64,000 nt of DNA from the NCBI GenBank assembly GCA_012841525.1, contig DUUO01000032.1, positions 6,166-70,165 on the forward strand, written 5' to 3'. Position 1 is the first letter of the stretch, and each line of letters starts with the position of its first letter. Made by a program: the position numbers and the translations under genes. Source of the DNA: Clostridiales bacterium. Its GTDB lineage: Bacteria; Bacillota; Clostridia; Christensenellales; DTU072. Positions 13,038 through 64,000 of this stretch are shown here, one piece after another. The notes under the pieces are model-generated. The model searched no databases, had not been told where the DNA came from, and saw only the letters and a list, made by a program, of their open reading frames with translations.

Positions 13038-13054
13038 TTGCAAGAAGTAGAAAA

Positions 13055-13160: not shown

Positions 13161-13258
13161 TAAATGAGTATTTTGTATTAATATCTATAAAGGTATTTAC
13201 ATAACTAAAATAAATACAAATATGTCAGTTTTATATCGCTGACTATAAGGAGGATAGT

Positions 13259-17232: not shown

Positions 17233-17497
17233 AAAACAATAAATATTTTGTCAAAATGTATTGTTAAATTGATACAAATATACAAATAAATTAATATTAG
17301 TGTAAATTACAAAAATGCATGATCAAAATAAGTAGTATACAATAAAATATATGACTAAAAATAGGTAGTATACTATATAAGACCTTTGGTGTAAAAAAAA
17401 AGCCTTTTTAATTTATGATTAAATTAAACTTATGGGCTTATATATTTTTTTAAAATAGTTATATAAATCAAAATAATTATTAAATGAGGAGATGTAT

Positions 17498-39872: not shown

Positions 39873-41345
<1,473 letters not shown>

Positions 41346-41704
41346 TCATTTTTTTTATTATAAGAAATATAAGGTTAATAGTCAATTATATTGCTTGTAT
41401 TCATTTGTAGTTTTAATTAATTTAAGTAATTGTGAAAGTAAATATAAAAATAAAGCAAAATACTAATTTTACTGGTACTTCTAAGTAGCAGGGCTATGGA
41501 AAATAAAATATAGCAATAAAATCGAATGATAAACTTAAAAGGTGATTTTTAAATAACGGGTTATTACAAAAATAAATAAAAATATAATTAAAACATCAAT
41601 TTTTATAGTTAAATCTTAAGTAAAATGTTTTTGTTATGTATGCTTTTCTTGACAAAATTATTTGTGTGTTAGATAATCAATGTGTAAATTTTTTAGGAGA
41701 GAAA

Positions 41705-46134: not shown

Positions 46135-46338
46135 TACCAGATACATTTTTTTTCAAATTTAGTTAATCTATTGAATTTTTTTAATTGTTGTAATTATGTA
46201 TCCATAGCTACAATACAGTAGTTTATATTCGGATTAATAACCTTTTGGAATATTTTTTTAATACCTAATAAAATAAAAATATTTATTTTTTTATTGCACT
46301 CTCTCAAAATTAGATTGAAGTCTGTATAGTTCGATTTA

Positions 46339-46650
46339 TGTGAGTTTAGAATCAAAAAAATTTATATGTGTAAAACATTATTTGTTTTCTTAATTTTTGC
46401 AATTAATGTTGTAGATGGTTTGATTGTATTTGTGCATTTTGGAAAAGTTATTACAAATTTTTTATTGTGTGGTAAAGCATAATGTGATTTTGTTCTACTG
46501 AGGATAATTCAAATAAAAAATATTAATATTTTGTGATACTTTGAATTTTTAAAAATGTTAAGTTGTGAATTTTTTTTGTTTTACATTATTGCAATAATTT
46601 TTGTAAAATTTATACTTTCATTTTTGTTTTTTTTATGTGAAATAATGTGA
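46339..46650 (+). promoter_or_regulatory. Six same-strand TGTGA-core direct repeats in the long AT-rich region upstream of the giant gene
   Basis: WWTGTGAWWT cores sit at 46339, 46483, 46532, 46564, 46636 and 46646, all on the + strand. Confidence 0.3.
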
Positions 46651-46697
46651 AATTATATGAATTTTATATTTATTAGAATAAATTTATGTTGGCAATT

Positions 46698-46726
46698 TTG
46701 CATTGCTTACTCTAATATATTATAAT
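46698..46726 (+). promoter_or_regulatory. Putative sigma-70-type promoter of the giant gene
   Basis: TTGCAT (46698-46703), then 17 nt, then TATAAT (46721-46726), 37 nt upstream of ATG 46763. AT-rich DNA produces many -10 look-alikes. Confidence 0.45.
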
Positions 46727-46762
46727 GATAACAATTAAAGGTGCATAAGGGAAAACTATAAG

Positions 46763-49700
46763 ATGTTTGCAAAATCTAAAATTAATAATAAATTTAAAAA
46801 TCGTTTTATTTTTGCAACGCTTGTTGTTTTCTTATTTTTTATTGTTTTAGCATCTTTTAATTTTCAACACATCACAAATAATTTCAACTTTGGTAAAAAT
46901 ATTGTTGCAGAAGCCGCTGGTGGTGCAAATGGAACTGGAAGAAATTCGGCAGTATTTTACGAGTTTACTACCGCTAATTTAGGGAACATGATTGAATTTT
47001 TCCCTAAAAATGGGTTCGGTGAGAATGAAGTTAATAAAGTCGGTTATATCAGTAGTGCACCTACGCATGATGAAGATTTAAGTTTTATGCCTTTTGTGGA
47101 TCCAAATGTAATTGGTTATAAAATTGATAGCGGTAAGCAAGATGTATATACTTGGATGAAGTTTAAGTTGAGCCGCGAAATGGTCGCATTACGAAGAATG
47201 GATTCATTGACAATTTCTGTTAAAAGTCATTTTTGGACAACTGGTTATCCTGATGGTGGTTTCCTTGCACTAGGCATTCCTGGTTTAGATCAAGATGATA
47301 TTACATATGAAAATTTTATATTGTCTCAACCTGAAACATTTTTCCAAGTAATGGGCGAGCAATCTACTCTTGGATGGCCAGGTGGAAATACTAAGATATA
47401 TTTAGATACCACGGTTATGTCGTATCTTGGTGATGAAAGTGATGAATATTTTTATCTTTTTGCAAACACTAAAACAAATCATAACCACACTTCTACTCAT
47501 GGACAGTTTGAAATTACATTAAACTTTACATCAGGTAATTCATATAAACTCGCAAACAATGCAATAAGTATTGATGGTAGTCCCATACCACGTGAAAATA
47601 TAGGCGGAGAAATTAAATATAGGTGGAATAATTCAGGAAATTTCGCTACTGTTACAAATACTGGCGAATCTGAAAATCTTTTTTGGTCTCAACATAATGA
47701 CATTTTAAATCTACAAGCAACAAAAGATGTTGAAGGTTATAGATTTTTAGGTTGGGCAATATTTACATCTAAACTGACATTTAAACCAGTAATTGATGTA
47801 CTAGGAATTAATCCTAATGTTGAATCAGATCTTGCATTGCAGAATGTTAAAAACAAAACTCAAGAGGCGCTAGAGGGATTAGCACAATGGATTCCAGGTG
47901 ATGATGATGTAGATAATTTGACAAATAGACTAAATCTTAGAAGAAGCAGTGCAACGGGTTATGTCGTTCCCTTGGAGGGTTCACATATATATGCAATTTA
48001 TGCTCCTGTATATTTCAAGCTAGAGTACAGACCTGGTGAAGCGGGGAATTTTGCTAATGTAATCAAACGTGCACCACCTTTTGCTAGATATAAAACAGGT
48101 TCAACCGATATTTTCCCAGATTCCGATTATGCTTTATTATCATGGGAAGACACGAGCTCTCCTGCAAACAGCTATGCTCCAGAAACTTCCTATGTTTTTC
48201 CAATTGTTCCACAAATAAATACATTTGATGATGGGTATATTACTTCAACGACCACATATGTTTTAATTGCAAAATGGACTTTAGTAGCAGGAGAAGCAGG
48301 TGCTGGTGTTACAGCAACACCATATAGACGAGTTTTTCATGATAGATATGTTGATATGTATTATAGAATTGAATTATCAGGTGGCTTATCTATTGATAAA
48401 GTTTTTGTTAAATTTAATAGTGGCGATTTAAAAAATCAATATATTATGATGGACAAAGATCCAGATCCAAATGAACCTAATGGTTACATTGTTCCATATG
48501 CATCGGGTAGCTTTACCATTTTAGCAAGTGTAACTAAAGAAACTTATAACATTACTTATTATTATCCTTCCTGGAGTTGCTCACCAAGTGATAGTCAAAA
48601 AAAATACATACCAGGAATTGGTTTGAGTTCTGCAGATTTACCTATTCCAACACGTTATGGTTATAAATTTATCGGTTGGCGTCTCAATTCTTATTCTGGT
48701 GAAATTATTAAAACTAATGACCAATTGAAAAATTTGACTGGTGATATATCTCTTTATGCTTATGGTGAAAAAGTAAGTACAAATGCAGTAACCATTTCAG
48801 ATGTGGAAAGTTTTAATAAGTATATGGAATTTTCTATTGATGCAAGTAGCTATGTTTCATATCGAGATCAAAAATATGATTCAGGTTTTGGAGACCATCA
48901 AAATCATGATCACTTTGTTTTAAATGGTCTTAATTATCAGTCCGTGTCAAAAGGCGGTATATATGCAAGTAATGCAAATGAATCTGGAGATGCTATAGGG
49001 CATGGTTGGAAATCAACAAACACAGGTGGCACAGTTTCTATGCGAGGAGATTATTACATATCTTTTGAAGGAACTGCATTGCAATATATTCGTATGGGTG
49101 CAAAAGTCGAAGTTTATGCCACAGCAGACTTAGATGTTGGTTCAGGTAGAAATTCTCATATTACTTCGGGCTACCAAGGTTCTGCTGCGATGCGTTTTGG
49201 AATAAGAAAAGGCCAAACATCAAATAACTCTGATGAAGGAATGTTCAACTGGAATGGAACCATAGATGATTATTCATATAAATCAGATGAAGGTTCATAT
49301 AAAATGACGCCTGAGCTTGCTGTTAAAAGTGCTGGTTGGCACTTGAATAGTAACCATTGGAGGTATGATAATGTAAACGCTGCAAGTGCTGCGACTGATA
49401 CCGATCCGTTAATACTTGATGAAGATTGTGCTGGAGTAACAATAAGTCTTTTTGCAAGATTTTTTGACGAACATTCTTCAGTATGGTATGCCAACTATGC
49501 TAGAGCAAGAAATATGAAGGTATATGTTAGATTTTCAGAAGGGCTTGTTGAAACAAACAAAGTAATTTACAAAGGAAATGGAGGTCAAATTCCATCGACT
49601 GAAATGAATGAATATTCGCAAACTTTTGGAACTACTGTAGATACCCCAAATTATTATTCCACTCAAGCACAACGAAATCGTGTTATTGAAATTAGAAATA

Positions 49701-52700
49701 AAGTTCAAATCAAAGTTGCACCAAATATTTTTGAAAGACAAGGTTATGAGTTTTTAGGTTGGTCAACTTCATCTAGTTCAACATTACCAGATGCTAACTA
49801 TGGAGTAGGATCATATCTAAATACTCAAGGACACACTTATAATGTTTCAAGTTCTGGAGTTATAACAAGAAATAAGGCGCCGATAACTTTATATGCAGTT
49901 TGGCAAAGGATAGGTCGGGTAGTAGCATCTTATGATGTCTTTGTTGGAAATTTAAATGAAGACGGAGGAATTTATTTTAGACCAAGAAACACAAAAGTTA
50001 GGACAGGAGCTTACTATCTTCCTAACAATCCACAAACAGATCAAAATTTTGATTACAAAGGTTTTATCAGAAGTACAAACGCTCCCAGTATTTATCATTT
50101 AAGCCACGATTCATTAATTAAAATTGCAAATACAAATCACGATTATAATGCAATATATAGTTATAAAGATGGTAATGGAGATTCTATTTTGTATCCATAC
50201 ATAAGTGGTATACCAGAAGGCAATACGGAAATTACGCAAAATTTAATTTTTTGTTATATTTGGGAATTGAATGCTCCAAGTGTTGAGGCAACAGATAAAG
50301 AAGTTGTATATGGAACTCAGGTTAATTTGAAGGATTGTTTAAATTTTGCAAGTATTCCAGCATCAGATATCGCAACGCATGCAACATATAAAATTTCAAA
50401 CGGAAAAGATGCAGATGAGGGCACTGGTTGGAAACGCAACAATAATTTAATTACAGATAGTTATAATGGTAATGAATATTACTGGAGAGATCCTATAAAC
50501 AACAGAGGTGTCATCTTCGAGCATATTGAAAGTTCTGCATATAATCCGGCAAATATTTTTCAAGCATCAATATATTATCAAAAAAACATGGGCAATAATA
50601 TTGTTTTGACTAGTGTTAACAATAATGCCATAAATGGTGGTTTACGAGTTTATATTTATCCTATTGTTTTGGAGGTTTCATTAAATACAACAAATGAAAG
50701 AACATATGACGGAACTGCACAAAATCCTTATTTTGATATCGAAGTAAAATCTGAAAATCAAGTTGTTGCGCCAAATGCTAGCATTAGTAATGTGTATGCA
50801 AATGAGTTAGAAAATATTAATAATAACTTTAACCATTTAGATAAAGGCTTGAAATTCATCATATCCTATAAATATAAGAACTTTATTGATTCAGAATCTG
50901 AAATTTTTGATTCTGGAGTAAAAGAATTCAAAAATGCTGGTACATATACTATTAATTCTTTGAAGCCAATCTATGATCAAACAGATCAACATTTGGAAAT
51001 CAATAACTATAACTACGTCTTCAAAGTTGTAGGCGATAATCAGTCTGCAAACAGTATATATAATGTAAATCCTATGCATAATTTAACATTTGCAAGAGAC
51101 TTAAAAGACACAACTGAAGTTGATATGCAATCAAAAAATTTAGATGTAGTTTTGTTATATACTAAGAAAGCATACGGTACTACGGCATTTGAAAACACGA
51201 AAGAGATTGTAAATGAAATATCTGCTCTTTTAGAACTTTCTCAAGAAACAAGTCACTGGTTAATGTTTTTAGACGGAATAACTCAAGCAGATTTACAATC
51301 ATCAAATACTGTTGATGCATTGAAAGTGTTATTAGTAAGACAAGGATATGATGCTTCTGCAAATGAAACAAGTTGGCTAAGTGCACCAGCAGATGATACT
51401 GATCCCGTTAAAGATTATAATGGGAATATTTTGTATTATGAAATTGCTCTAAGAGCAAATAAACTATTAAAAGAAACATATTTAAGTGATGCATCTGATC
51501 CATATAATGCAGTTTATAAAGCACTAGCAAACAATTATAATTTTTCAGCAGGCTCACTTGATTATTCGGATTATTTAGTAGAGGAATATGCTGAATTAAA
51601 AGAAATCCTTAATTTTTATAATATTTTTGCAGATCAAAATACAGAAAAGAAGGAAATTAATTATAGGGGAACAAATGAACAATGCTTTGTTGGAGTATAT
51701 GATAAAAACGCAGAAGGAGAAGGATCACAAAAAGGTGTTTGGCTTGAGATTTCACAACTAGAAATCAATATAAATTGGACTACACCAGATTTAACATATA
51801 ATGGTTTAGCACAAGGTAAAACAGGTACAATTACGGGGATATTGCCAAATAATGAAGTGGATTTTTATGTTGAAAATGCAAATGGTAATATTTCCCTAGG
51901 TACAATCTCTGGTAGTGGAACACCACAAATTACTAATTTAACTAGTGTTGATGCTGGTTCATATTATGCAAAAATAGCAATTGCAAACAATAACTATGTC
52001 TTAGCAAATGGCGATGAGGTAGAGTGGACAATTAAAAAAGCACAAATTAACTTTGTTTCCACATCTGGATATGTAACAGGCGGTTCATATAACTCAGATG
52101 GTGAATTATTATCTGGAGATTTTTCTCAAAAATCTTTTACAACTGATAACATTTATGAGGCTAGCAAAGATTACGGATATAAATGGGATATATCAGGAAT
52201 TATGCAAGGAGACAGCGTATCGTTCCAAATTGCAAGATATAACAACACCTCTTTTTCACATGACGGTAATGAAGCTTTCCCACCAGGTATTAGTGGAAAT
52301 ATAAAGGTTATGACTAGTTATTTGACTGGACAGAATTGCGTTGATGATAATCCTACATTAACATTGACAAATTTAAATGGAGGTTCAACTTTAACACGCT
52401 ATTTCTTAGCGCATAATGTTGGAAGTTATTACTTTAGAATTGCAGGAAGTATATCAGATATGAAAAATCCTTCAAGTACTGCAAAATATACAAAGTCTGC
52501 TCCAATAGGAAAAGAAATTGATGGAGAATTTTTAGAAAGTGATTGGAGAAATTATTACATAGGCCAATATACCAATGATTATACTGAACATAGTTTCATG
52601 ATAACCAAGAGAGCTTTAAGCTTAAGTTGGCAAGATGTAGAAGAAAAAACATATAATGGAGATTATCAAGAAATTCTTGCTTTTTATGTTTTAGGACTTC

Positions 52701-55700
52701 AAGGACTTGATGAAGTTAAATTAAAATTAAGATTTCCTGAAGGAATGCAAATGGTTGAGGAAGAGACCGAAGATCATGTTGTCGAAGATCCAACAACAGT
52801 TATTCCTCCTAATTTAACAAAAGATTATGAAATGAATAAAAACATATTGTCATCTAGTCTATATTCAATTAGGGCAAAAGATGCAAAAACATATGGTATT
52901 GCCGTTTTACAATTAGAGGGAAAACATAAAGATAATTATGACTTTTTGACGGCACAAAAAGAGGCTACAATACTTAAAAAGATGCTTTTATTTGAATGGA
53001 GTGATGAATTTAATGATAAAGATAATGGTAGATATGTATATGAGAAAGGCTACATAGGGCCAAAGCTAGAAATTTCAAATATTCAAAGTCAAAATAATGT
53101 GTTAGACTCCATTAAACTTTATATAAACTTGCCAACTGGCATAAAGTTCCAAACTCAAATCAGAGATTCTGATACTAATCAATTTGTAAATACTGATATA
53201 ATTACTCCTTCACCTACAAATTCACCAATAGACTATGAGACATTAGTCAGTATGACAAATTCAACAAATGATAGTTTTTATAGGTTTTTAGCAAGAGATG
53301 CTCTAGCAAATGCTGGTTCATATAAAGCAACAATTGTTCAAATTTCTGGAGAACATGCATCTAATTATACTCTTGCTAATGTTGAAAATCTTTCAAAGGA
53401 ATTTATTATTTATCCAAAACCCATTACCTTAAATGCAACTAGCGAGACTAATTTTACATATAATGGACAAAGTCAAGGAGTAACTATTACTGCATCAGCA
53501 GGTGATATATATTCTGGTGATGTAGTAACTTTTGTTGTTCCATCACAAGGGGCAGGATCTAATCAATATGATTATTCCGGAAACAATGTTTCAAAGCCAG
53601 ACTATATTCCAGGTGCAAATAGTCATATGTTTAAGGCTGTATATGTTGCTAATTATAGAGTAGTGATTTATGGTTCTCAAAATAATAATTATTTCATCAA
53701 ATTGACAGATGATACCATAGTAAGTTCAACAAATCCATATACATTAGATTTTCGAATCAACAAATTAAAAGTTGGTTTGACTTGGGGAGTTTTATTGTTT
53801 ACCTATAATGGAAATATTCATACATTAAGTCTTCCCACAATAAACAATAAAATTACAGGCGAAGATGTAAATTTAAGTTGGAATGATGGCGTAGGTTATA
53901 CTCATGCTGAAAAAAATAAGGGTAACTATGTTGCAAGAATTTCAAATAGTTTAACAGGAACGCATGCAGATAACTATACTTTGGAAGGTGTTATTTTGAC
54001 CAAAAATTGGGAAATTGTACCAAAATTATTAACATTCACATTTAATTTGCCAGATCCTACACCAATATATTCTAAAAACTTCATAGAGTCTGCAAGTTTG
54101 GGTATTAACGGAATTTGTGCTGGGGATAATGTTAAATTGAAAATCAATGCAACTGCTGGTATAAAGATGCAATATAATAATGTAGATTACTTCAATCCAG
54201 CGATTACGTCAAATGGCTTTAATGTGACCACACCACTTGTAACCGCTGATGTAGTATATAAACTACTTGCGCAAAATGCAGGAAGTTACAATATAACAAT
54301 TGATGCAAATTCTATCCAAGGAGATTCGGCAGAAAACTATAAAATTGATGTAACTTATGCAAAAACATTTTCAATTAATAAAAAGGTCGTATCAATTAAT
54401 GCATGGTATGTAGGAGATTTTGTTTACGGCTCCAATACAAATGTAATATATAACAGTGCCCATAACCAATTTACATATGACAATACTAATAAAAAAGTAA
54501 CAGCAGGTTATACGATTGCTAACTCGGGTGTGATACTTCCTAATGATGGAAAAGTATATTATGGAGATAATTTGAGTCTTTCTTATACACCATCAGAGGG
54601 ATATCAATTAAATATCCAAAAAAATGCAGGCACATACAACTCAATAGTTCAAACCACAAACATAAACTATAAACTTAAAGAGGAAAAATTAACGCTTGAA
54701 TGGAAAATTAATCAAGCAACAGTTAACATTCAATTTATTGAAAAAGTAAATAGAAAAATTTCAGACTTTAATTATACATATTCTGGTGCAGAGCAAGGCT
54801 TGTATATAAAATTTACGGGTATTGCATCTGAAGATTATATTAAAGCGACGGTTGAAAAAGTAGGGAATTTTAGCGTATCAGGAGTTTTAACTGGAGAAAC
54901 TGAAATTGAAAATAATGTTAGTTATGAATTTTCTGCAAAACATGTAAATTATGATACTGTTAATAATGTGGTAATACCATATGTTGTTAAAATTACTCAA
55001 GTTTTTGATTCAAAAGGTCATACTGGCGTTAATTCTAATTATAAATTTACTGTTAATTTCCCAGTTAATAAAGAATTTACAATAAATCCCGTTGTTTTAG
55101 ATTTTACATGGGGGGCTGATGAAATTACTTACACAGGAAGCGAAATAGAGTATCCATTGCCTACAATCACTAATTTGGTCCCAGCAGATCAATCTAGAAT
55201 TTATTTAATTAAAAATGAAACTCTTTCATCTCCTAATTTATGGAAGGCAACTGCTGTAGGTACATATTATGCACATTTATCAGAAAATGTTGGTGTAATT
55301 GGTAGCAATGGATTATATGACTATGTAATGCCAACCGAATCAGATCCTAACTTTAATAAAATGGTAAAAGAGTGGAGAATTGTAAAGCGCATTATTGAAA
55401 TTTCACAATTTGAATCATTTGAGTTGACATATAATCAAACATTCCAGATTGCAAAGATATTAAAAATTACAGGATTACAAAATGCAAACGATGATATTAA
55501 AATAAAGTTTAGATTATCTGCTAATTTGAAAGTAAATAATTATAGTGCAGAAGATCAAGAAATTGGTGCATCTATAATAGGTGCTGATGATTATGTAACA
55601 CCTTCACTAAATAATTATGTAATGATATCTTCTCTTACTGCCGATGCAACAACAATTGCAGGACAACTGATAGCAGTGCAAGCAAAATATGGACAAGTAG

Positions 55701-58700
55701 CGCCATATCAAGTGTCAGCATTAAGTTTAGAAAGTGAGGATGAGGCTGCTGCAAACTATGAATTAAGTCAAGTATCTTTTAATTTCAATGTTGCTCAAAA
55801 AACTATCAATGTAGTAGATTGGTATATTGATGATGTTGGACAGACAAAATATACATCCTCTTCATTTGTTTATGATGGCAGTTCAAAATCAGTTTATCCT
55901 AAAGGTCCTAATGGTTCTAATTTAGATTTTATAGCTGGTGATAATGTTTCAATTATTTATGCTGGACATTCAAATTCACAAATAAATGCAGGAACATATA
56001 CAACAACAATTACTTTAGGCAGCGATTTGATTAGTGCAAGTTATAAACTAGAAGGAAATACTACATTAACTAATTGGATTATTGCAAAAAGGCAAATTTT
56101 ATTAAGTTGGAGTGGAGATGCATCTACAACATGGCAAACTGAAGAAATGATTTTAGTTACAACATATGATAGTAATGATCACCATATATTTGCAAATATT
56201 TTAAATAAAATTGCAACAGATGATGTCAGTTTTGTTTATAACACTAATGCTACTAATAAAGATGTTTCAACTACACCATATTCTAGAACAATTACTGGCC
56301 TTAGTGGTTCTAAAAAAGATAACTATACTTTAGATGGAGTTGATAATCTAACCAAACAATGGAAGATTTTACAAAGAACAATAAAATTTGTTTGGGATCC
56401 AAATCAAACTATGACATATAATGGAGATTATCAAGGTGTAAAACTAAATATTGAAAACATTGCAGGTAACGATGTTTTATCATTTATGTTTGATGCAACT
56501 GATAAAGTTAGAGGGACAAGTGTATCCAATTGTTATGTTTCAACTGATGATGCTAATGACACCATAAGTGTTACTAACACTGGCGTAGTTTTAAGTGTCA
56601 ACTTTGAGGCAAAAGATTATGGTGCATATACTGTATCAATCAACGAAAATACAGGAATCACTGGAGTTAAAGCAGGAAACTATAATTTAACTGGACAAGT
56701 GCTTTCAAAAACTTGGACAATAGGAAAAAAACAAATTACATTTGATGTTACATCTGAAAGTCCATTTACATATTTTGCACAAAATGAACAAGGTATTTTG
56801 GTCAAAGTAAATGGTATTGTTTCAGGAGATAATATAGTTTTAGAGACAAGCACAGCAGGTGGTGCTTTAACTACAAATGAATTAAATGATGTAGTAGTAA
56901 ATTCAACAACAAATTATAACTTAAAGGCTATAAATGCTGGCACATATGATACTGTTGTTAATGCAATTTCTGGCTCTTCTGCTAATAACTATCAAATTCC
57001 AGTTGCATTACCATCTAGGACATTTTCATTTGTTATTAACAAAAAGCTTATAGAAATTATTGATTGGTACGTTGGAGACTTTAATCCAGATGGCGGAAGT
57101 GTTTTATATAATTCAAACTCATTTGTTTATGATGGAACAAGTAAAAAGGTAACAGCAGGATTTAATATTGGTGCAGAAAGTGCAAATGATAAAAAAGTTT
57201 ATGACAGTGATAAATACACCATTTCATTGCTATATAACACTGGTGAAAACCCAAATATTCAAATTAATTCGGGTACATATAATACAAAAGTTAATTTAGC
57301 AAATAGTATACCAAGTGCAAACTATACTTTATCTTCCACAGATCCAAAATTAACATTGTCATGGCTTATTTCTCAAAGAGTTATTGATTTAACTTGGCCT
57401 TCGACTTTATTGTTTGTTTATGATGGAAATCAAAAAAATATCAATGCAACTATATCTAACATAGTATCTGGCGATACGGTAGGCCTTGTTTATCAAAATA
57501 CTGGAACAACTGAAATAGGTGGAGAGACTTATACATATACAAACTCTGCTATTAATTCAGGTAAATATATTTCTAAAGTTATAGAGTTAGTTAACAATAC
57601 AAACTCAAATTACAGATTACCTTTAGAAAGTGAAGCAGCACTTTATGAAAAACTATCAAAGCAATGGGAAATTACTAAACGAGAAATTTTGATAAGTTGG
57701 AGTGGTGCAGATTCGTTTGAATATAATGCAAATTGGCAAGGTACAGAGTTATCTGCTTCAAACTTTATAGCATCAGAAAGCATAGCATTGATGCTAGATA
57801 TAACTAGTGAAAATCCTGTCAATGTAACTTCAACAAATGCTTCCGTTAGTGGTAGCAAACCTAATTTTGTGCTCACATCAGAACAATTATCACTTAATGC
57901 AAATATAGAGGGCAAAAATGCTGGTACTTTTCAAGCAGATCTTAGACTGGCTGATTCATATACTAAAAACTATGTTTTAACTGGAAATCTTCAAAAGATC
58001 TTCAATATTACTAAAAAGATTATTTCTCTAGCATGGTCTGGTCCAAATTCGTTTATATACAACACTGAAAATCAAGGTGTTTCTTTAACCGTTTCAGGAA
58101 TTTTAGGAAGCGACGCTAATTTAGTGGAATTTATGCTAACAATTGTTGGCCAAATTTCTTTAATTGGCGCAGGCATTATTACAACTGGTCAAAGAAAACT
58201 AAAAAATGGTGTTCATAATTTTGTTGCAAAAGATGCAGGGGTATATTCTGTTAAAGTTGGAGAAAATCTTTTGGGTGAAAGTGGTGCTAATTATACTTTA
58301 ACAATATCTCCAACTGATACTTGTCAATTTGTAATTGCTAAGAAAAATATAACCATTCCAAATTGGTATATCTCCACATATACATTAGGTGGAAGCAATA
58401 CTAAATACACCAATTCTTCATTTACATATGATGGTAGTGCAAAAACAGTTGTTCCAGGATATTTAGGTGGGGCAACTCTAGCCAATGATGGAAGGTTTTA
58501 TACTTCTGATTTAAGTGAAAATATGTCCGATGCCTTCGAATTTAATGAAGCTTCAGATTCTAACACTCAAATCAATGCAGCTTCATATACAACCGAAGCA
58601 AGGCTTTCTGAAAGCTCACCTCTAAATACAAATTACTTAATAACTGCAGGAGCGGTATTAAATTGGTTGATAAGTCAAAAAACTATTACTGTATCATTTA

Positions 58701-61700
58701 CTGGTAGTTCAATATTTACATACAATGGACAAAATCAAGGAATTGCTGCAGTAGTTAATGGAATTGTTGAAACTGAACAAGTTAAATTAACTACAGTAAC
58801 TAATGTTGAAACAAAAGGATTTGATTCAACAATTTCAATATCAAATGGAACATATAACTTCCATAGTAAAAATGCTGGCAATTACAGTGTATCGATAACT
58901 GGCGTTGATAATGCAAATTATAAATTAGAAAATCCTCCAATTATTACTGACTTTACTATTTCAAAATTAACTATTCAATTATCTTGGGGCAATACAACAT
59001 TTGAATATAATGCATTCGAACAAGGGCCAAGTATACCTACAATTTCAAATTTGATTGCTAATGATACTGTTTCGTTAAGTTGGGATGATAATACAACTTA
59101 TACTCATTTAGAGACAAATAAAGGAAATTATGTTGCAAAAATTTCAGAAGAACTATCTGGGACAAGCTCTGAAAACTATACATTATATGGTGTTACATTA
59201 ACTAAAGATTGGAAGATTGTAGCAAAGAAAATTACATTTACATTTACTTCAGAAAACTTAACATATTCAGGTAATTTTGCTCAAATAGGAACAATGGAAG
59301 TTGTTGGTGTATATGCAAGTGATACCGTGAAAATAAATGCAAATGTTTCACCAGGTGTAAAATTGCAATATAACTTAGATGATTATTTTGATGTTGCAAA
59401 TGGAACGAGTCCTGGTGGCTTAGTTCCTACTACAGGTTTGCACTCTGGTGTTACATATGGAATTTTTGTAAAAGATGCAGGCTCATATAATTTTGTTATC
59501 AATACAAATGCTTTGCTTGAAAGCCATCCAACAAATAATAATTATGAAATTGCAACCACATATTCACAAACCTTTACGATGCAAAGAAGAGAGTTAAGCA
59601 TAACATTTAGTGAATATTATCAAACATATTTATCAGCATATAGTTATGAATATTCTGCAAATTACCAAGGTGTTAGAGCAGAAATTTCAAACATTGTTTC
59701 TGGTGAGGAAATTTATATACATTTTAATGTAACTGGTGGATCACCAATTAAAATCTATACAGATTATAGTTCAAATAATTTCGCAAATGATTTAGGAAAT
59801 GTTTCAAATGTTCAAACAAATGGTAATGCTAATTTTGATGTTGGATTTACCGCGGTTAATTATGGAAATTATACGGCATCAATTACACATATAATCGATA
59901 CAAATGGTGTTTCTAGTGTAACTGGTGGAAACTATAGTTTGCCTACAACAAAATCTCAAAGCTTTAATATTGAAAAGAAAACCCTAACAATTAATTGGCA
60001 AACAACAACAACTTATGTATATGACAAAACAGTAAAATCTGTTGTAGCAACTGCTGGTGGATTAATTAGTCCTGATGTTGCATCGTTTGTATATGATGAA
60101 ACTAATGAACTTCAAGATGGAAGAAATCTTCAGTCTTCGGCTATAAATTATGGATTATATCGTTCACTTATTATAGGTCTTACTGCTGAATCAAACATTA
60201 ACTACAAATTACCAACAATTAATTTATCAAAAGATTGGCAGATTGATCAAAAGGTTGTTGATATAATTTGGCCATCAACTTTATCTTTCGTTTATGATGG
60301 AACTTCAAAGAGTGTAAATGGGACCGTTTCTAACATAATATCTGGTGATAATATAAGTTTAGTTTATCAAGACGAAGGATCAATAGATATTGGTGGAGTA
60401 ACATATTTGTATAACAATGTTGCAATTCCTGCAGGAAAATATATTTCAAAAGTTATAGCACTAGATAATAATGAAAATTCAAACTATAGATTGCCTTTAG
60501 AAAGTGAAACGGTGCTTTATGAAAAACTATCAAAGCAATGGGAAATCACAAAACGTCAAATAAATATAAGCTTTAGTGGTAGTTCAAACTTTACATATAA
60601 TGGTCAAAATCAAGGAATTGATATTGTATTTTCAAATCTTGTTGCAAATGATTGTGCTGACAATACACTTCAAATAACTATTAATGTATCTGATGGGGTA
60701 AATTTAATCAATATACCAATTGAAACGTCGGGCAATTCTAATAATTTTACTTATCAAGTAAGAGAAATCGATGCAGCAACATATAATATATCATTTGTTT
60801 CTATGGAAAATACAAATTATGTTATTGATCTAACTCAACAAGCATCATTTACCATTTCTAAAAAAGTTTTGACATTAGATTTTGAAGAATTGTTTACACC
60901 TGGAATGAAAAAAGGCAGTTATGAATATACCTACTCAAAAGGTGAACAAGGAATAAGTTTTTCATTAAATGGTATTCTAAAACGAGGGGCATCTTTAGAG
61001 TATGAGGATGTTACACTAAATGCAAGTAGCAACACTCCAGTTTCAAATAGTACATTTAACAATACTTTTGAAGGAGCAAAAACAGACACTATTAGCGGAA
61101 GTTTAACTGCCATAAATGTAATTGATGGTCAATATCTTGCTAATTTTTATATTAATCATAAAAACTATACACTAGACAATTTAACAAACTCAATATCTTG
61201 GAAAATTGCTAAAAAGGAAATTGATATTAAAATATTAACTTTAGAAGATGCTGATTATACCGACACTTCTTTCTATTACGATGGCACAACAAAAGGTATA
61301 AAAGCTATTCCTCAATATAGCGAAGTAGACGTAAATACCAGCAATCCTGGTGTTTACTTTGGAGACAATGTAAACTTTGTATATGCTGGCACGCGTCAAG
61401 CAATTAATGCAAACACATACAATGCTACTGTCAATATGGCCTCTTCACTTCCATCTTCAAATTACTATGTAAACCAAAATGTAATATGGAAGATAAATCA
61501 AAAAGCTGCAATTATTTCTTGGGTTGGTAAAAATAATTTAGCAGACTGGTCATATGCTGATATGCCAAAAGTTATCTATGATGGCACACCTCACAATATT
61601 ATTGCAGTTGTTTCAAATGCAATCGCAGGCGATAGCTTTACATTCACATATACAGGCAGCGAAGATCAAGTTAATGTGAACTTAGATGGAAATCCATATT

Positions 61701-64000
61701 CAAGAACATTAACTGATGTTGGTAACACTAACTATACAATTTTAGAGTCATCAAATTTAACTCAAACATGGGAAATAACACCTAAATCACTTGTTGCAAA
61801 TTGGAGTGGAGAATCACAATATGTATATGCCAACAGTTTATTCGGTCCAACATTAACAATTTCAGGTTTAGTGGGCAGTGATACAATTTCTTATGATGCT
61901 ACAACAAAAATTACAAACAGTAGTGATAGCATTATTGCAAACAATGTTGCAAATTCTTCAGTTGTTGAAATCTCTCAAGATCCTCAAGTCTTTAGAGTTA
62001 ATGCATTGAGTGCTGCAACTTTTTCTACAAAATATCAAGCAAGAGAATATGGCTTATATGAAATTACAAATGTTTCTCTTGTAGATTCTACTGTTTCTAG
62101 AAACTATACTCTTTCTGTTGATACATTCCAATGGACAATAGGGAAGAAAACAATTATCTTTACTTTTGAAGGGAATACTTCGCTAATTTATAATGCTAAA
62201 AATCAAGGAATAAGTATTAAAATATCTGAAGATTCGATATATGAAAATCCTGCAAATACTAGCGGTTTTGATGAAGTGACACTAAATTTAACACTGCTTG
62301 GTAATTTTGAAATAGGCAATGCTCAAATTCAAAATATCGAAAATGATGGTATTTATGAATACTTTGGTAAAAATGTTGGAACTTATAAAATTACTGTTCA
62401 AGATTTAATAACTGGACAAGATGGGCACAATTATGAACTTAGCTCTACAAACATAAAAACTATAACATTTACAATTATTCCAAAAGAAATTTATATTTCC
62501 AATTGGTATATTGGCAATTTTGTTCAAGGCTCTACTGAAAACATTGTATATGATAAAGTAAATCACAATCAATTTACATATGATAATACTAATAAAGTAG
62601 TTACACCAGGATATGAAGTTGGTGCAACAAGTGATGATGATTATAAAGTTTATACACAAGATGCTGGAATGATTACCTTTGAATATTTATCAGATAAGGA
62701 TTTAAATATACAAAAAAATGCTAACGAATATGAAACAACTCCTAAAACTTTATCTACTGGCGTTAGTGCAAACTATGTTGTTGTTTCAAATTCTACAAAT
62801 CCATCTACATTAATATGGAAAATTAACAAGGCAACGGTAACATTAACTTTATCTCCAAGTACACCTCCAACTTATACATATAGTGCCCAAGAACAAGGAA
62901 TATCTTATGAAATTACAGGTATAGCAGCAAATGATACGATTTCACTTGATGTAGATTTTGTCGGACCATTTACTACAAGAGGATTTTTAAGTGGTGAAAG
63001 CCTTGCACAAAATACTACATATATGTTCAAGGGTAGAGATGTATATTTATCTGATGGTGCAGTACAATCATATGAAATTAAAATAAATTCATTAACAGAT
63101 AGCAAAGGAAACATTTCAACAGGAGCAGATTGCAACTATATCTTAGTAAAAACGGATGCTTCATTTATGATTACTCAAAAAACTGTAACGGCAATTTGGG
63201 GAACATATAATTACATATATAACGGTCAAGAACAATCTGTTTTAATGCCACAAGTAAGCGGAAAGTTAAATGGTGATATTGTAGGTTTTTCATTTACATC
63301 AGATTCAGTTAATAAAGCAATAAATGCAGGAACATATACAGCAAAAGTTTCCTCTACACTTATTGGTGAAAGTACATCTAACTATTCATTTGATGGCTCA
63401 CAATTAATTTGGAAAATTGCTACGAAAGAAATTAATTTAGTTTGGGAAGATGATCCAAATGAAACATTATTAACTGATGACTTTTCATATACATATACTG
63501 CAAAACTTATCGGTGTTAGATTATCTTTATTAGGTTTAATTGAGGGTGAAAGTGCATCTGTCAAATATGCAAATGATGGACTTGTCAGCACCACATCCAA
63601 TTATAATGCTAGTGGTATAACACCAGACATAAATAACGTTGATAAACATTATTTTGCTTCAATTAATGCAAGTGAAGGTCAAAATATTTCATATTATGGA
63701 ATTAAAATTACTGAAATTGATGATGAAAATTATCATATTAATCCTTTAAGCAGTAAGACAAAATCGTGGGCTATTGTTAAGAAAACATTAGATTTATCAT
63801 TTACATACACATCTAATGCAGAAGTTGTATATGATGGGTTAAATCATGGAGTAATATTGACAATAGCAGGTATTCAAACTAATGAAAATTCAGTTTTAGA
63901 TGAATTAACTCTATCTTATACTGCTACTAGTGGACTTAACCCAAGCGTTGAAAATTCTAATCCATTTGCAATTGAAAATACTAGCTATACATTCAATGCA
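46763..64000 (+). CDS. Giant repetitive surface protein, 3'-open (at least 5,746 aa in window): signal-anchor, non-repetitive head with three Listeria-Bacteroides-type repeats, then ~35+ tandem Y(D/N)G..AG(T/S)Y..NY modules (MBG/YDG-like adhesin repeats)
   Basis: The frame with codon starts = 2 mod 3 is closed by TAA at 46736-38 and then open to base 64000. The first ATG is at 46763. I hand-translated about 2 kb continuously and spot-checked 50.64, 50.70, 52.08, 53.76-54.04, 55.02, 57.36-57.69, 58.02, 58.92-59.25, 60.24-60.56, 61.02 and 63.96 kb without finding a stop. N-terminus is MFAKSKINNKFKNRFIFATLVVFLFFIVLASF. It is absent from the track, presumably because no stop lies inside the window. 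Confidence 0.9.
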   Translation, partial: MFAKSKINNKFKNRFIFATLVVFLFFIVLASFNFQHITNNFNFGKNIVAEAAGGANGTGRNSAVFYEFTTANLGNMIEFFPKNGFGENEVNKVGYISSAPTHDEDLSFMPFVDPNVIGYKIDSGKQDVYTWMKFKLSREMVALRRMDSLTISVKSHFWTTGYPDGGFLALGIPGLDQDDITYENFILSQPETFFQVMGEQSTLGWPGGNTKIYLDTTVMSYLGDESDEYFYLFANTKTNHNHTSTHGQFEITLNFTSGNSYKLANNAISIDGSPIPRENIGGEIKYRWNNSGNFATVTNTGESENLFWSQHNDILNLQATKDVEGYRFLGWAIFTSKLTFKPVIDVLGINPNVESDLALQNVKNKTQEALEGLAQWIPGDDDVDNLTNRLNLRRSSATGYVVPLEGSHIYAIYAPVYFKLEYRPGEAGNFANVIKRAPPFARYKTGSTDIFPDSDYALLSWEDTSSPANSYAPETSYVFPIVPQINTFDDGYITSTTTYVLIAKWTLVAGEAGAGVTATPYRRVFHDRYVDMYYRIELSGGLSIDKVFVKFNSGDLKNQYIMMDKDPDPNEPNGYIVPYASGSFTILASVTKETYNITYYYPSWSCSPSDSQKKYIPGIGLSSADLPIPTRYGYKFIGWRLNSYSGEIIKTNDQLKNLTGDISLYAYGEKVSTNAVTISDVESFNKYMEFSIDASSYVSYRDQKYDSGFGDHQNHDHFVLNGLNYQSVSKGGIYASNANESGDAIGHGWKSTNTGGTVSMRGDYYISFEGTALQYIRMGAKVEVYATADLDVGSGRNSHITSGYQGSAAMRFGIRKGQTSNNSDEGMFNWNGTIDDYSYKSDEGSYKMTPELAVKSAGWHLNSNHWRYDNVNAASAATDTDPLILDEDCAGVTISLFARFFDEHSSVWYANYARARNMKVYVRFSEGLVETNKVIYKGNGGQIPSTEMNEYSQTFGTTVDTPNYYSTQAQRNRVIEIRNKVQIKVAPNIFERQGYEFLGWSTSSSSTLPDANYGVGSYLNTQGHTYNVSSSGVITRNKAPITLYAVWQRIGRVVASYDVFVGNLNEDGGIYFRPRNTKVRTGAYYLPNNPQTDQNFDYKGFIRSTNAPSIYHLSHDSLIKIANTNHDYNAIYSYKDGNGDSILYPYISGIPEGNTEITQNLIFCYIWELNAPSVEATDKEVVYGTQVNLKDCLNFASIPASDIATHATYKISNGKDADEGTGWKRNNNLITDSYNGNEYYWRDPINNRGVIFEHIESSAYNPANIFQASIYYQKNMGNNIVLTSVNNNAINGGLRVYIYPIVLEVSLNTTNERTYDGTAQNPYFDIEVKSENQVVAPNASISNVYANELENINNNFNHLDKGLKFIISYKYKNFIDSESEIFDSGVKEFKNAGTYTINSLKPIYDQTDQHLEINNYNYVFKVVGDNQSANSIYNVNPMHNLTFARDLKDTTEVDMQSKNLDVVLLYTKKAYGTTAFENTKEIVNEISALLELSQETSHWLMFLDGITQADLQSSNTVDALKVLLVRQGYDASANETSWLSAPADDTDPVKDYNGNILYYEIALRANKLLKETYLSDASDPYNAVYKALANNYNFSAGSLDYSDYLVEEYAELKEILNFYNIFADQNTEKKEINYRGTNEQCFVGVYDKNAEGEGSQKGVWLEISQLEININWTTPDLTYNGLAQGKTGTITGILPNNEVDFYVENANGNISLGTISGSGTPQITNLTSVDAGSYYAKIAIANNNYVLANGDEVEWTIKKAQINFVSTSGYVTGGSYNSDGELLSGDFSQKSFTTDNIYEASKDYGYKWDISGIMQGDSVSFQIARYNNTSFSHDGNEAFPPGISGNIKVMTSYLTGQNCVDDNPTLTLTNLNGGSTLTRYFLAHNVGSYYFRIAGSISDMKNPSSTAKYTKSAPIGKEIDGEFLESDWRNYYIGQYTNDYTEHSFMITKRALSLSWQDVEEKTYNGDYQEILAFYVLGLQGLDEVKLKLRFPEGMQMVEEETEDHVVEDPTTVIPPNLTKDYEMNKNILSSSLYSIRAKDAKTYGIAVLQLEGKHKDNYDFLTAQKEATILKKMLLFEWSDEFNDKDNGRYVYEKGYIGPKLEISNIQSQNNVLDSIKLYINLPTGIKFQTQIRDSDTNQFVNTDIITPSPTNSPIDYETLVSMTNSTNDSFYRFLARDALANAGSYKATIVQISGEHASNYTLANVENLSKEFIIYPKPITLNATSETNFTYNGQSQGVTITASAGDIYSGDVVTFVVPSQGAGSNQYDYSGNNVSKPDYIPGANSHMFKAVYVANYRVVIYGSQNNNYFIKLTDDTIVSSTNPYTLDFRINKLKVGLTWGVLLFTYNGNIHTLSLPTINNKITGEDVNLSWNDGVGYTHAEKNKGNYVARISNSLTGTHADNYTLEGVILTKNWEIVPKLLTFTFNLPDPTPIYSKNFIESASLGINGICAGDNVKLKINATAGIKMQYNNVDYFNPAITSNGFNVTTPLVTADVVYKLLAQNAGSYNITIDANSIQGDSAENYKIDVTYAKTFSINKKVVSINAWYVGDFVYGSNTNVIYNSAHNQFTYDNTNKKVTAGYTIANSGVILPNDGKVYYGDNLSLSYTPSEGYQLNIQKNAGTYNSIVQTTNINYKLKEEKLTLEWKINQATVNIQFIEKVNRKISDFNYTYSGAEQGLYIKFTGIASEDYIKATVEKVGNFSVSGVLTGETEIENNVSYEFSAKHVNYDTVNNVVIPYVVKITQVFDSKGHTGVNSNYKFTVNFPVNKEFTINPVVLDFTWGADEITYTGSEIEYPLPTITNLVPADQSRIYLIKNETLSSPNLWKATAVGTYYAHLSENVGVIGSNGLYDYVMPTESDPNFNKMVKEWRIVKRIIEISQFESFELTYNQTFQIAKILKITGLQNANDDIKIKFRLSANLKVNNYSAEDQEIGASIIGADDYVTPSLNNYVMISSLTADATTIAGQLIAVQAKYGQVAPYQVSALSLESEDEAAANYELSQVSFNFNVAQKTINVVDWYIDDVGQTKYTSSSFVYDGSSKSVYPKGPNGSNLDFIAGDNVSIIYAGHSNSQINAGTYTTTITLGSDLISASYKLEGNTTLTNWIIAKRQILLSWSGDASTTWQTEEMILVTTYDSNDHHIFANILNKIATDDVSFVYNTNATNKDVSTTPYSRTITGLSGSKKDNYTLDGVDNLTKQWKILQRTIKFVWDPNQTMTYNGDYQGVKLNIENIAGNDVLSFMFDATDKVRGTSVSNCYVSTDDANDTISVTNTGVVLSVNFEAKDYGAYTVSINENTGITGVKAGNYNLTGQVLSKTWTIGKKQITFDVTSESPFTYFAQNEQGILVKVNGIVSGDNIVLETSTAGGALTTNELNDVVVNSTTNYNLKAINAGTYDTVVNAISGSSANNYQIPVALPSRTFSFVINKKLIEIIDWYVGDFNPDGGSVLYNSNSFVYDGTSKKVTAGFNIGAESANDKKVYDSDKYTISLLYNTGENPNIQINSGTYNTKVNLANSIPSANYTLSSTDPKLTLSWLISQRVIDLTWPSTLLFVYDGNQKNINATISNIVSGDTVGLVYQNTGTTEIGGETYTYTNSAINSGKYISKVIELVNNTNSNYRLPLESEAALYEKLSKQWEITKREILISWSGADSFEYNANWQGTELSASNFIASESIALMLDITSENPVNVTSTNASVSGSKPNFVLTSEQLSLNANIEGKNAGTFQADLRLADSYTKNYVLTGNLQKIFNITKKIISLAWSGPNSFIYNTENQGVSLTVSGILGSDANLVEFMLTIVGQISLIGAGIITTGQRKLKNGVHNFVAKDAGVYSVKVGENLLGESGANYTLTISPTDTCQFVIAKKNITIPNWYISTYTLGGSNTKYTNSSFTYDGSAKTVVPGYLGGATLANDGRFYTSDLSENMSDAFEFNEASDSNTQINAASYTTEARLSESSPLNTNYLITAGAVLNWLISQKTITVSFTGSSIFTYNGQNQGIAAVVNGIVETEQVKLTTVTNVETKGFDSTISISNGTYNFHSKNAGNYSVSITGVDNANYKLENPPIITDFTISKLTIQLSWGNTTFEYNAFEQGPSIPTISNLIANDTVSLSWDDNTTYTHLETNKGNYVAKISEELSGTSSENYTLYGVTLTKDWKIVAKKITFTFTSENLTYSGNFAQIGTMEVVGVYASDTVKINANVSPGVKLQYNLDDYFDVANGTSPGGLVPTTGLHSGVTYGIFVKDAGSYNFVINTNALLESHPTNNNYEIATTYSQTFTMQRRELSITFSEYYQTYLSAYSYEYSANYQGVRAEISNIVSGEEIYIHFNVTGGSPIKIYTDYSSNNFANDLGNVSNVQTNGNANFDVGFTAVNYGNYTASITHIIDTNGVSSVTGGNYSLPTTKSQSFNIEKKTLTINWQTTTTYVYDKTVKSVVATAGGLISPDVASFVYDETNELQDGRNLQSSAINYGLYRSLIIGLTAESNINYKLPTINLSKDWQIDQKVVDIIWPSTLSFVYDGTSKSVNGTVSNIISGDNISLVYQDEGSIDIGGVTYLYNNVAIPAGKYISKVIALDNNENSNYRLPLESETVLYEKLSKQWEITKRQINISFSGSSNFTYNGQNQGIDIVFSNLVANDCADNTLQITINVSDGVNLINIPIETSGNSNNFTYQVREIDAATYNISFVSMENTNYVIDLTQQASFTISKKVLTLDFEELFTPGMKKGSYEYTYSKGEQGISFSLNGILKRGASLEYEDVTLNASSNTPVSNSTFNNTFEGAKTDTISGSLTAINVIDGQYLANFYINHKNYTLDNLTNSISWKIAKKEIDIKILTLEDADYTDTSFYYDGTTKGIKAIPQYSEVDVNTSNPGVYFGDNVNFVYAGTRQAINANTYNATVNMASSLPSSNYYVNQNVIWKINQKAAIISWVGKNNLADWSYADMPKVIYDGTPHNIIAVVSNAIAGDSFTFTYTGSEDQVNVNLDGNPYSRTLTDVGNTNYTILESSNLTQTWEITPKSLVANWSGESQYVYANSLFGPTLTISGLVGSDTISYDATTKITNSSDSIIANNVANSSVVEISQDPQVFRVNALSAATFSTKYQAREYGLYEITNVSLVDSTVSRNYTLSVDTFQWTIGKKTIIFTFEGNTSLIYNAKNQGISIKISEDSIYENPANTSGFDEVTLNLTLLGNFEIGNAQIQNIENDGIYEYFGKNVGTYKITVQDLITGQDGHNYELSSTNIKTITFTIIPKEIYISNWYIGNFVQGSTENIVYDKVNHNQFTYDNTNKVVTPGYEVGATSDDDYKVYTQDAGMITFEYLSDKDLNIQKNANEYETTPKTLSTGVSANYVVVSNSTNPSTLIWKINKATVTLTLSPSTPPTYTYSAQEQGISYEITGIAANDTISLDVDFVGPFTTRGFLSGESLAQNTTYMFKGRDVYLSDGAVQSYEIKINSLTDSKGNISTGADCNYILVKTDASFMITQKTVTAIWGTYNYIYNGQEQSVLMPQVSGKLNGDIVGFSFTSDSVNKAINAGTYTAKVSSTLIGESTSNYSFDGSQLIWKIATKEINLVWEDDPNETLLTDDFSYTYTAKLIGVRLSLLGLIEGESASVKYANDGLVSTTSNYNASGITPDINNVDKHYFASINASEGQNISYYGIKITEIDDENYHINPLSSKTKSWAIVKKTLDLSFTYTSNAEVVYDGLNHGVILTIAGIQTNENSVLDELTLSYTATSGLNPSVENSNPFAIENTSYTFNA
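51750..64000 (+). repeat. In-frame tandem array of ~290-380-bp coding modules inside the giant ORF, with ~1.3-1.45-kb higher-order periodicity
   Basis: Recurring pattern: [KR]-x-[IL]-x-[ILV]-x-W ... (F/V/T)-Y-(D/N)-G ... SGD/AGD ... (N/K)AG(T/S)Y ... NY-x-L ... W-x-I-x-K-[KR]. Hand alignments of distant modules give 52/94 identities (53762-54043 vs 58964-59245) and 74/107 identities (57368-57688 vs 60242-60562), both ungapped. Confidence 0.8.

Follow-up and report, generated by a model that had tools for sequence, protein, structure and literature searches.

A giant open reading frame from biogas-reactor Clostridia encodes a probable fibre-like surface protein with a stalk of YDG/MBG-like modules

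Introduction

Ebh and SasG of Staphylococcus aureus and CshA of streptococci are examples of fibrillar adhesins. Giant bacterial proteins are mainly non-ribosomal peptide synthetases and polyketide synthases or surface proteins (PMC11573180), and in Clostridia, gut metagenomes have yielded predicted proteins of 10,000–30,000 amino acids (aa) with Listeria-Bacteroides repeats (West-Roberts et al., 2023; bioRxiv 10.1101/2023.11.21.568195). Extracellular proteins of 3,000–8,000 aa, Giant1-5, which take up a sizeable share of coding capacity, are also described for Apilactobacillus kunkeei in the account of PMC12863079. Here we examine a giant gene that begins downstream of rdgB, at the end of a 64,000-nucleotide (nt) stretch of contig DUUO01000032.1 (assembly GCA_012841525.1, Clostridiales bacterium), which we refer to at its full length as the window. 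We estimate a probability of roughly 0.7 that this gene encodes a secreted, fibre-like, adhesin-like surface protein of an uncultured Christensenellales-like Clostridia species.

Results

A single intact reading frame runs off the end of the window

Machine translation of positions 46763–64000 on the plus strand (translation tables 11 and 4) yields 5,746 codons with 0 stops (TGA 0, TAA 0 and TAG 0 in frame, TGG 74), preceded by an in-frame TAA at 46736–46738 and beginning with the first ATG at 46763. A preliminary description of this DNA had placed the upstream stop, the ATG and the length of the open frame exactly so, and machine translation reveals no in-frame stop that would alter it. It had also proposed that a caller requiring a terminating stop would miss the gene; indeed, the open reading frame (ORF) lister left it out only because the frame leaves the window. 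The remaining five frames of the same interval contain 317–728 stops each, with a longest open run of 95 codons, and with a stop probability per codon of 0.0835 derived from base composition, ln P for 0 stops in 5,746 codons is approximately −501. Third-position GC content is 0.164 in the giant ORF and 0.169 in the pooled housekeeping genes of the window, from which it follows that codon usage is native and that the gene was not recently acquired. The composition of the product (N 9.9%, S 9.3%, T 9.2%, Y 6.5%, G 7.2%, C 0.2%), together with the 37 modules described below, bears out its first characterisation as an Asn/Thr/Ser/Tyr/Gly-rich, nearly Cys-free and modular protein.

The gene is one real, intact ORF conserved across strains and species

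The rdgB protein is unchanged on 18 public contigs, and on six of these the giant frame is open to the end of the contig or locus (796–3,124 aa). Three of the loci, L001, L002 and L005, are 98.7–99.7% identical to the window over the full 3,124 aa. Five independent assemblies keep the frame open, and the indels among assemblies all preserve it (a single codon at aa 696, two at aa 2991–2992). On the 230-kb contig JBEFFC010048053.1, which carries L001, the gene (at ~178,989–212,817) is called complete at 11,275 aa; the window would thus hold about half of a gene of ~34 kb (~11,275 codons).

When metagenome contigs were scanned with the two module blocks closest to each other, two orthologous segments (L089 and L090) emerged, both 20,762 nt long and open throughout in one frame (6,920 codons). 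The encoded product aligns colinearly with aa 1036–5746 of the window protein, at 66% identity and with 125 gap columns in ~4,700 residues, and continues for 2,225 aa past the equivalent of the window end, stop-free and again consisting only of stalk modules. The gene order der-aat-guaB-cofE-like-GH3-rdgB-giant is shared by the related species represented by L007 and L088. The L007 homologue of the giant N-terminus is 50% identical, compared with 72–89% for the neighbouring genes, and L088, a third related species with the same gene order, comes from an assembly of 1.1x coverage that is shattered by frameshifts. The giant gene has been kept in at least three related species, and it is found in biogas reactors in Germany and Korea. 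In more distant relatives rdgB is followed by another gene, and the flank contains no giant gene; the gene at this position encodes ~470 aa and, judged by eye only, may be a GH30-type glycosidase, an uncertain assignment.

A distant homologue was also observed on a Logan contig (ERR14656823; L087), where it is split by an in-frame TAG at 12873–12875. The TAG sits in the middle of a module (FTYDNTP*GLKLTLGNLV) that is normal downstream of it. Sequencing error may account for this codon, as may a nonsense mutation of recent date, recoding or read-through.

The last 600 aa of the protein seen here have no relative in Genome Taxonomy Database (GTDB) species representatives or JGI metagenome contigs; word-indexed search of 5.8 billion protein clusters gave no match for aa 1–1100, the last 200 aa or the module profile; and exhaustive HMMER searching of a library of 1.84 billion representatives gave no self-hit and no high-identity fragment of the giant protein. 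Both protein collections seem to be blind to giant proteins, even though the gene is called on public contigs.

An export segment, a near-orphan head and a long modular stalk

The features of the gene and its leader are as follows.

46135 to 46762, plus strand: AT-rich leader of 628 nt between rdgB and the giant gene
46763 to 64000, plus strand: first 5,746 codons of the giant ORF, without stops and open at the window edge
46763 to 46864, plus strand: putative export signal or signal-anchor, basic KSKINNKFKNR followed by a hydrophobic segment of ~20 aa (aa ~11–34)
46907 to 46918, plus strand: AEAA motif (aa 49–52), ~15 aa after the hydrophobic segment, a candidate signal-peptidase A-x-A site
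46916 to 50659, plus strand: head (aa ~52–1300), beta-rich, matching no family apart from interspersed Listeria-Bacteroides-type repeats
47735 to 47755, plus strand: GYRFLGW motif (aa 325–331), second Flg_new-like repeat, at motif level only (regular expression)
48632 to 48760, plus strand: Flg_new (PF09479) repeat (aa 624–666), with a GYKFIGW motif at 48659–48679
49109 to 49714, plus strand: strain-variation hotspot (aa 783–984) with about half of the 98 variable columns among six assemblies
49151 to 49174, plus strand: 8-codon patch within the hotspot (aa 797–804), nearly fully rewritten in L001
49742 to 49762, plus strand: GYEFLGW motif (aa 994–1000), third Flg_new-like repeat, at motif level (regular expression)
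50660 to 51787, plus strand: unassigned region (aa ~1300–1675), a YDG-like stretch (ERTYDGT...NAGTY...NNYNY) and then a segment matching no module
51788 to 64000, plus strand: stalk of 37 contiguous modules (aa 1676–5746) delineated with an iterative hidden Markov model (HMM), the last module cut by the window edge

The N-terminal segment gives a Kyte-Doolittle peak of 2.55 (19-aa window) and is the sole strongly hydrophobic segment in 5,746 aa; lying after the basic stretch, at aa ~11–34, it corresponds to the basic region and hydrophobic stretch of about 20 aa noted previously. The basic and hydrophobic layout is repeated in homologues, with little or no basic stretch in P0070, and, of five N-termini that were aligned, four have (A/V)EAA at the equivalent place (window, L007, P0013 and P0070). 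We infer that the N-terminus is a Sec signal with possible A-x-A cleavage near the (A/V)EAA motif. A homologue of S26 signal peptidase I is encoded at L087:7296-8030 (Pfam 25.1 bits, cutoff 22.9). Its gene shares 4 nt with the one before it, and 235 nt separate it from the giant-gene homologue downstream. This homologue may be a dedicated processing enzyme and, together with the (A/V)EAA motif, hints at specialised cleavage; no S26 counterpart adjoins the giant gene in the window.

Within the head, the Flg_new repeat at aa 624–666 is the sole certified copy (Pfam 36.1 bits against a cutoff of 27, E=7e-9), the corresponding TIGR02543 score for the Listeria-Bacteroides repeat being below cutoff (17.9 against 20.95). 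Weak self-similarity connects aa 247–331 with aa 540–639. Most matches in the HMMER search with the head align to aa ~580–680, and many Flg_new-type proteins align to aa ~980–1060. Besides Flg_new, the head has no match in Pfam, NCBIfam or, by sequence, in Protein Data Bank (PDB) chains. Only seven true relatives, which match outside the Flg_new-type repeats, were found among the 1.84 billion representatives (P0001, P0002, P0008, P0012, P0013, P0055 and P0070); they are mostly fragments, the best with 56% identity over 365 aa. The head is thus nearly an orphan, much as it had first been judged unrecognisable, although one Flg_new repeat within it is certified. The module HMM described below matched one protein (P0012) among the best 150 head-search matches, which are mostly Flg_new-repeat proteins, and so the window protein is not simply another Flg_new-repeat protein.

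The bulk of the protein is the stalk. An iterative HMM built on the protein itself gives a module period of 82–164 aa (mean ~110) and a consensus (F.Y(N/D)G..Q..I.G.V.GD.V.L...A.NAG.Y...L.G..A.NY.L...K.W.I.KK.I.I.W.) in which Y4 and Y68 are invariant, and N67, Y53 and I88 at least 90% conserved, across a 36-module alignment. The orthologue segment of 6,920 aa has 50 module matches. A further module at aa ~1311–1444, within the region preceding the stalk, was considered and rejected as not significant (module HMM independent E-value ~1), the likeness there being at motif level only.

The families tested for the YDG/MBG superfamily were YDG (PF18657) and MBG (PF17883, PF18676 and PF18887). Scanning of the whole window protein with Pfam detects no YDG or MBG family at E<=0.01, and the distal part of the orthologue reaches 20.6 bits against a Pfam cutoff of 25. 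When modules are scanned individually, sub-threshold matches appear to YDG in ten of the 36 (best E=1.8e-4), to MBG_2 in five, to MBG in two and to MBG_3 in one, giving 18 YDG/MBG matches in total, and every other family is matched by at most one module. A bridge to certified domains is provided by two more distant loci found through module similarity. L092 encodes a protein of 2,516 aa with a cleavable signal peptide, certified YDG domains (E=3e-35) and three C-terminal SLH domains, and L093 one of 2,125 aa with DUF285 and MBG_3. A module HMM built from the window only matches the L092 protein (E=1.4e-9) at Pfam's YDG stretch and the L093 protein (E=2.2e-24) at Pfam's MBG_3 stretch, and profile–profile alignment (hhalign) of the modules with the L092 YDG domains gives 75% probability (E=2.6e-5); a Y-D/N-G motif near the module start and NY.L near its end are aligned to the L092 YDG motifs. 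These cross-hits and the profile–profile match to certified YDG and MBG_3 domains argue that the stalk modules are remote members of the YDG/MBG superfamily lying below Pfam cutoffs. Together with the Flg_new score they also support the families named in the preliminary description, namely MBG, YDG and Listeria-Bacteroides.

An AlphaFold2 (AF2) model of one module, using its 36 paralogues as the alignment, has a predicted local distance difference test score (pLDDT) of 95.5. Foldseek comparison of this model with the PDB returned nothing at E<=0.001, with TM-scores of at most 0.35, and PDB sequence searches with the module profile and the certified YDG profile gave chance-level matches only.

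The modules have diverged but their number is conserved

At the DNA level, the giant gene lacks tandem repeats. Paralogous modules have a median identity of 26% (90th percentile 33%, with one pair at 69%), and orthologous modules are 50–80% identical between two species (median 66%). The array is therefore old, conserved in copy number and not being homogenised. The best paralogues of modules tend to lie 8 or 16 modules away, a hint that blocks were duplicated long ago. Since module identity is low and DNA repeats are absent, collapse or expansion of the array is of no concern and short-read assemblers get through it.

Strain variation is concentrated in the head

Comparison with L001 using the Nei-Gojobori method gives non-synonymous (dN) and synonymous (dS) divergences of 0.054 and 0.030, respectively, for aa 780–990 (from small counts), against 0.0028 and 0.0033 outside this interval, so that both are ~10–20 fold above the rest of the gene in the hotspot. 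Because dN and dS are raised together in this patch, divergent alleles appear to have been imported by recombination. Over 3,124 codons, dN/dS is 1.2 in comparison with L001 and 2.3 in comparison with L002, again from small counts, and 0.09 for five neighbour genes. This pattern suggests, from sequence comparison among strains, that the hotspot combines recombination import with weak or diversifying selection. The patch was also considered as the target of a diversity-generating retroelement and rejected as such, its substitutions involving all four bases (C to G, G to T, T to G); no reverse transcriptase is present among the window genes.

Genomic neighbourhood and leader

Gene annotations agree with the earlier account that rdgB lies directly upstream of the giant gene and that no sortase, dedicated secretion system, glycosyltransferase or chaperone is encoded among the window genes. 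These comprise rsgA, rpe, asp23, fakA, recG, a hydrolase, thrS, infC, rplT, an rRNA methylase, yebC, two phosphofructokinase (PFK) genes, ppx, maf, mreB, valS, gyrB/gyrA-type topoisomerase subunits and der, followed before the giant gene by an aminotransferase, guaB, a cofE-like gene, GH3 and rdgB. The leader has a purine-rich AAGGGAAAA stretch upstream of the ATG of the giant gene and a promoter-like TTTGCA-18-TATAAT at 46697–46726; such sites are no commoner than in shuffled sequence and this one is not functional evidence. No terminator-like site was found in the leader, and a riboswitch or other RNA element was rejected, no Rfam family matching the 628 nt even at E<=1.

Several other features of the window were observed. 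Among the housekeeping genes, positions 8178–10004 (plus strand) encode a 608-aa protein with GLUG motifs (PF07581, E=1e-10). GLUG motifs occur in some surface proteins and proteases, and the window may thus encode a second surface protein here. The thrS-infC gap (12220–13330, ~1.1 kb) contains no ORF of at least 100 aa and has no Rfam match (T-box and L20-leader undetected). As the initiation factor 3 N-terminal match begins at profile position 19, the infC start probably lies upstream at a non-canonical codon, which probably covers only a small part of this gap. The adjacent PFK-family genes at 17492–18463 (323 aa) and 18761–20017 (418 aa), both on the plus strand, are possibly ATP-dependent and PPi-dependent paralogues. 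The only sizeable minus-strand gene in the 64 kb is guaB (IMP dehydrogenase, 39873–41330), which coincides with the only GC-skew dip (40001–42000); all other genes, the giant one included, are co-oriented, consistent with placement on the leading strand. The cofE-like gene (41636–42880, plus strand) encodes a 414-aa protein with an F420-0:gamma-glutamyl ligase (CofE) Pfam domain and weak NCBIfam equivalog scores; in this fermentative Clostridia lineage it occupies the same position in L007, where it is 88% identical.

Organism and habitat

The Der GTPase encoded in the window is 88% identical to that of L007, from the biogas metagenome-assembled genome (MAG) 'Clostridiales bacterium AS21ysBPME_203', and no GTDB species representative exceeds 88% identity for this protein. 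It is 58–70% identical to Der of MAGs assigned to Christensenellaceae, Ca. Coproplasma, Ca. Borkfalkia and Ca. Stercoripulliclostridium. All traceable source samples are biogas reactors: IMG 3300002898 is a German agricultural, plant-fed biogas fermenter (PMC4897800), JBEFFC is 'Ichon_M' from Korea, assembled from short reads with MEGAHIT (PMC11791102), LSQX is a biogas-upgrading reactor assembly (PMC5985405), the AS21ysBPME MAG set comes from biogas (PMC7038595), and SRR2917897 and SRR2917898 are biogas reactor samples (PMC8879888).

Discussion

The window ends in an intact, conserved ORF whose product has an N-terminal export segment, a beta-rich head of ~1,300 aa and a rod of YDG/MBG modules. 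The combination of an export signal, a distinct head and a long rod of small beta domains is the architecture of fibrillar surface proteins, and it is from this architecture that we infer an adhesin function. In our working model, the protein would be exported by Sec and cleaved near the conserved (A/V)EAA motif, and its C-terminus would attach it to the envelope, as the SLH domains do in the L092 protein. If one module per ~110 aa continues, the full stalk would have ~85–100 modules and could extend the N-terminal head a few hundred nanometres outwards, where the head would bind a partner cell, a plant fibre or another surface. The variable patch of the head would then be the face exposed to selection by ligands, phages or competitors, and low identity between modules may guard the array against recombination and misfolding.

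Several observations weigh against this interpretation. Were the N-terminal segment to act as an anchor and stay uncleaved, the protein would have the opposite orientation and its head would lie beside the membrane. No LPXT[GAN] motif is present in the 5,746 aa seen, and the C-terminal ~5,500 aa, with any anchor, toxin or enzyme domain, lie beyond this sequence. Searches of Pfam, NCBIfam and PDB sequences found no recognised adhesive or ligand-binding domain, so that the fibrillar adhesin originally proposed is upheld in its export signal, head and tandem stalk, but not by a recognised adhesive domain. Structure prediction succeeded for one module, but not for the head, where the AF2 model from an 8-sequence alignment consists mostly of strands at a mean pLDDT of 43.7 and is unusable. 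The dN/dS values of ~1.2–2.3 fit diversifying selection or recombination, and fit relaxed constraint equally well. Finally, the gene call on L002 (ENA ERZ2647959 NODE_125) is only 6,295 aa and, taken with the TAG in L087, indicates that interrupted alleles may exist. L001 and L002 are ~99% identical over the first 3,124 aa despite calls of 11,275 and 6,295 aa; as the orthologue is open well beyond the equivalent of aa 6,295, the shorter call looks truncated or misassembled and is probably a strain-specific truncated allele or an assembly error.

These discrepant calls, dN/dS values around 1 or higher within the species, and the metagenomic origin of all source assemblies (JBEFFC having been built from short reads with MEGAHIT; PMC11791102) are also what could be said for a repeat array that assembly collapsed, expanded or joined chimerically, or for a pseudogene in decay. 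This explanation is effectively refuted: without DNA tandem repeats and with 26% median module identity the array offers nothing that could collapse, five assemblies from different reactors match one another except for in-frame indels, the 66%-identical orthologue keeps 6,920 codons open, and the chance of so long an open frame is ~e^-501. A carbohydrate-active scaffold, cellulosome-like or enzyme-bearing, that tethers the cell to plant polysaccharide would suit the plant-fed biogas fermenters in which the organism lives (PMC4897800), the GH3 gene two genes upstream and the dockerin repeats reported on other Clostridia giants (bioRxiv 10.1101/2023.11.21.568195), but we consider it highly improbable, as neither the 5,746 aa of the window nor the 6,920 aa of the orthologue contain a cohesin, dockerin, carbohydrate-binding module or glycoside hydrolase domain.

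A fibre that delivers rather than binds is also conceivable, in which the YDG/MBG rod presents a C-terminal toxin or lytic domain in the style of polymorphic toxins or contact-dependent inhibition and the N-terminus serves chiefly for export and anchoring. YDG/MBG repeats also occur in filamentous-haemagglutinin-type proteins according to Pfam annotations, strain-level hypervariability is typical of conflict systems, and there is room for such a domain in the ~5,500 C-terminal aa outside the sequence seen. However, the hypervariable patch is in the N-terminal head and not in a C-terminal cassette, the 2,225 aa by which the orthologue extends past the window are stalk modules only, and neither an immunity-like small ORF nor a toxin family was seen at any related locus, which makes delivery quite improbable. 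Alternatively, the protein might be a non-specific structural component of the envelope or matrix, acting as a spacer, sheath or floc scaffold that would keep cells at a set distance or bind aggregates into one mass, without the ligand specificity of an adhesin. Consistent with this, no binding domain has been identified, and module copy number is strictly conserved between species (125 gap columns in ~4,700 residues), suggesting that length itself is under selection; moreover, Christensenella relatives flocculate with methanogens (bioRxiv 10.1101/872333). We nevertheless regard a purely structural role as rather unlikely, since a distinct, fast-evolving head with a variation hotspot fits a recognition surface and not a passive spacer. 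The adhesin-like surface protein that we favour has a bolder and, in our estimation, unlikely form, in which the head, with its recombination-like patch, is a new recognition domain for partner-specific attachment and the stalk fold has no solved counterpart. The partner could be a hydrogen-consuming methanogen or a particular plant-fibre surface and, in a variant of this proposal, the C-terminal half could carry an unexpected effector. If true, the lineage would have an attachment organelle of its own made from a single 34-kb gene.

At ~11,275 aa the protein falls in the far tail of bacterial protein lengths, and it is probably the chief structure by which the organism touches its environment. 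Because syntrophy and life attached to surfaces are central to biogas microbiology, a conserved giant fibre whose tip evolves fast is a concrete candidate for the means by which this abundant uncultured fermenter binds to its partners or its substrate. Such genes also fall into a practical blind spot of annotation, being missed by stop-requiring ORF listers and barely recognised by Pfam and NCBIfam. In addition, the module alignment yields a confident model (pLDDT 95.5) of a YDG/MBG-type domain for which no solved structure was found.

The preliminary description singled this locus out as exceptional; the giant gene is real, but its novelty was overrated, since giant surface proteins of Clostridia form a class described before (West-Roberts et al., 2023), and no new mechanism is demonstrated here. 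What is distinctive is the sub-threshold YDG/MBG stalk, the near-orphan head and the absence from the protein collections searched. In common with the giants of West-Roberts et al. (2023), the protein belongs to the class Clostridia, falls within their size range at 11,275 aa, has Listeria-Bacteroides repeats and consists mostly of repeated beta-rich domains, and like them it is known only from metagenomes and presumed to bind surfaces. In contrast to those giants, which come from the mammalian gut, it derives from biogas reactors, and Flg_new is a minor element (one certified repeat and two at motif level) of a protein whose bulk is a YDG/MBG-like array. A tandem-domain stalk, a terminal non-repeat region, an export signal and rapid evolution are shared with the fibrillar adhesins surveyed by Monzon et al. 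(2021; PMC8286594), whereas no domain from the recognised adhesive-domain lists is found in the window protein; MBG, YDG and Flg_new are not mentioned in the main text of that survey. Giant1-5 of A. kunkeei, a Bacillota species with a small genome, resemble it as very large extracellular proteins in the terms in which they are described, but form a cluster of five genes in another lineage and habitat, whereas here there is a single gene (PMC12863079). The YDG/MBG-domain surface proteins of L092 and L093 are 4–5 times shorter and have unrelated heads, their organisms have 60% and 52% GC against 30% here, and the modules of the window protein, unlike theirs, fall below Pfam cutoffs. All three nevertheless share the superfamily of the stalk module, with the core Y(D/N)G...G.i..D.v...naG.Y...NY.L, and L092 displays the layout of signal peptide, N-terminal region, repeats and C-terminal anchor.

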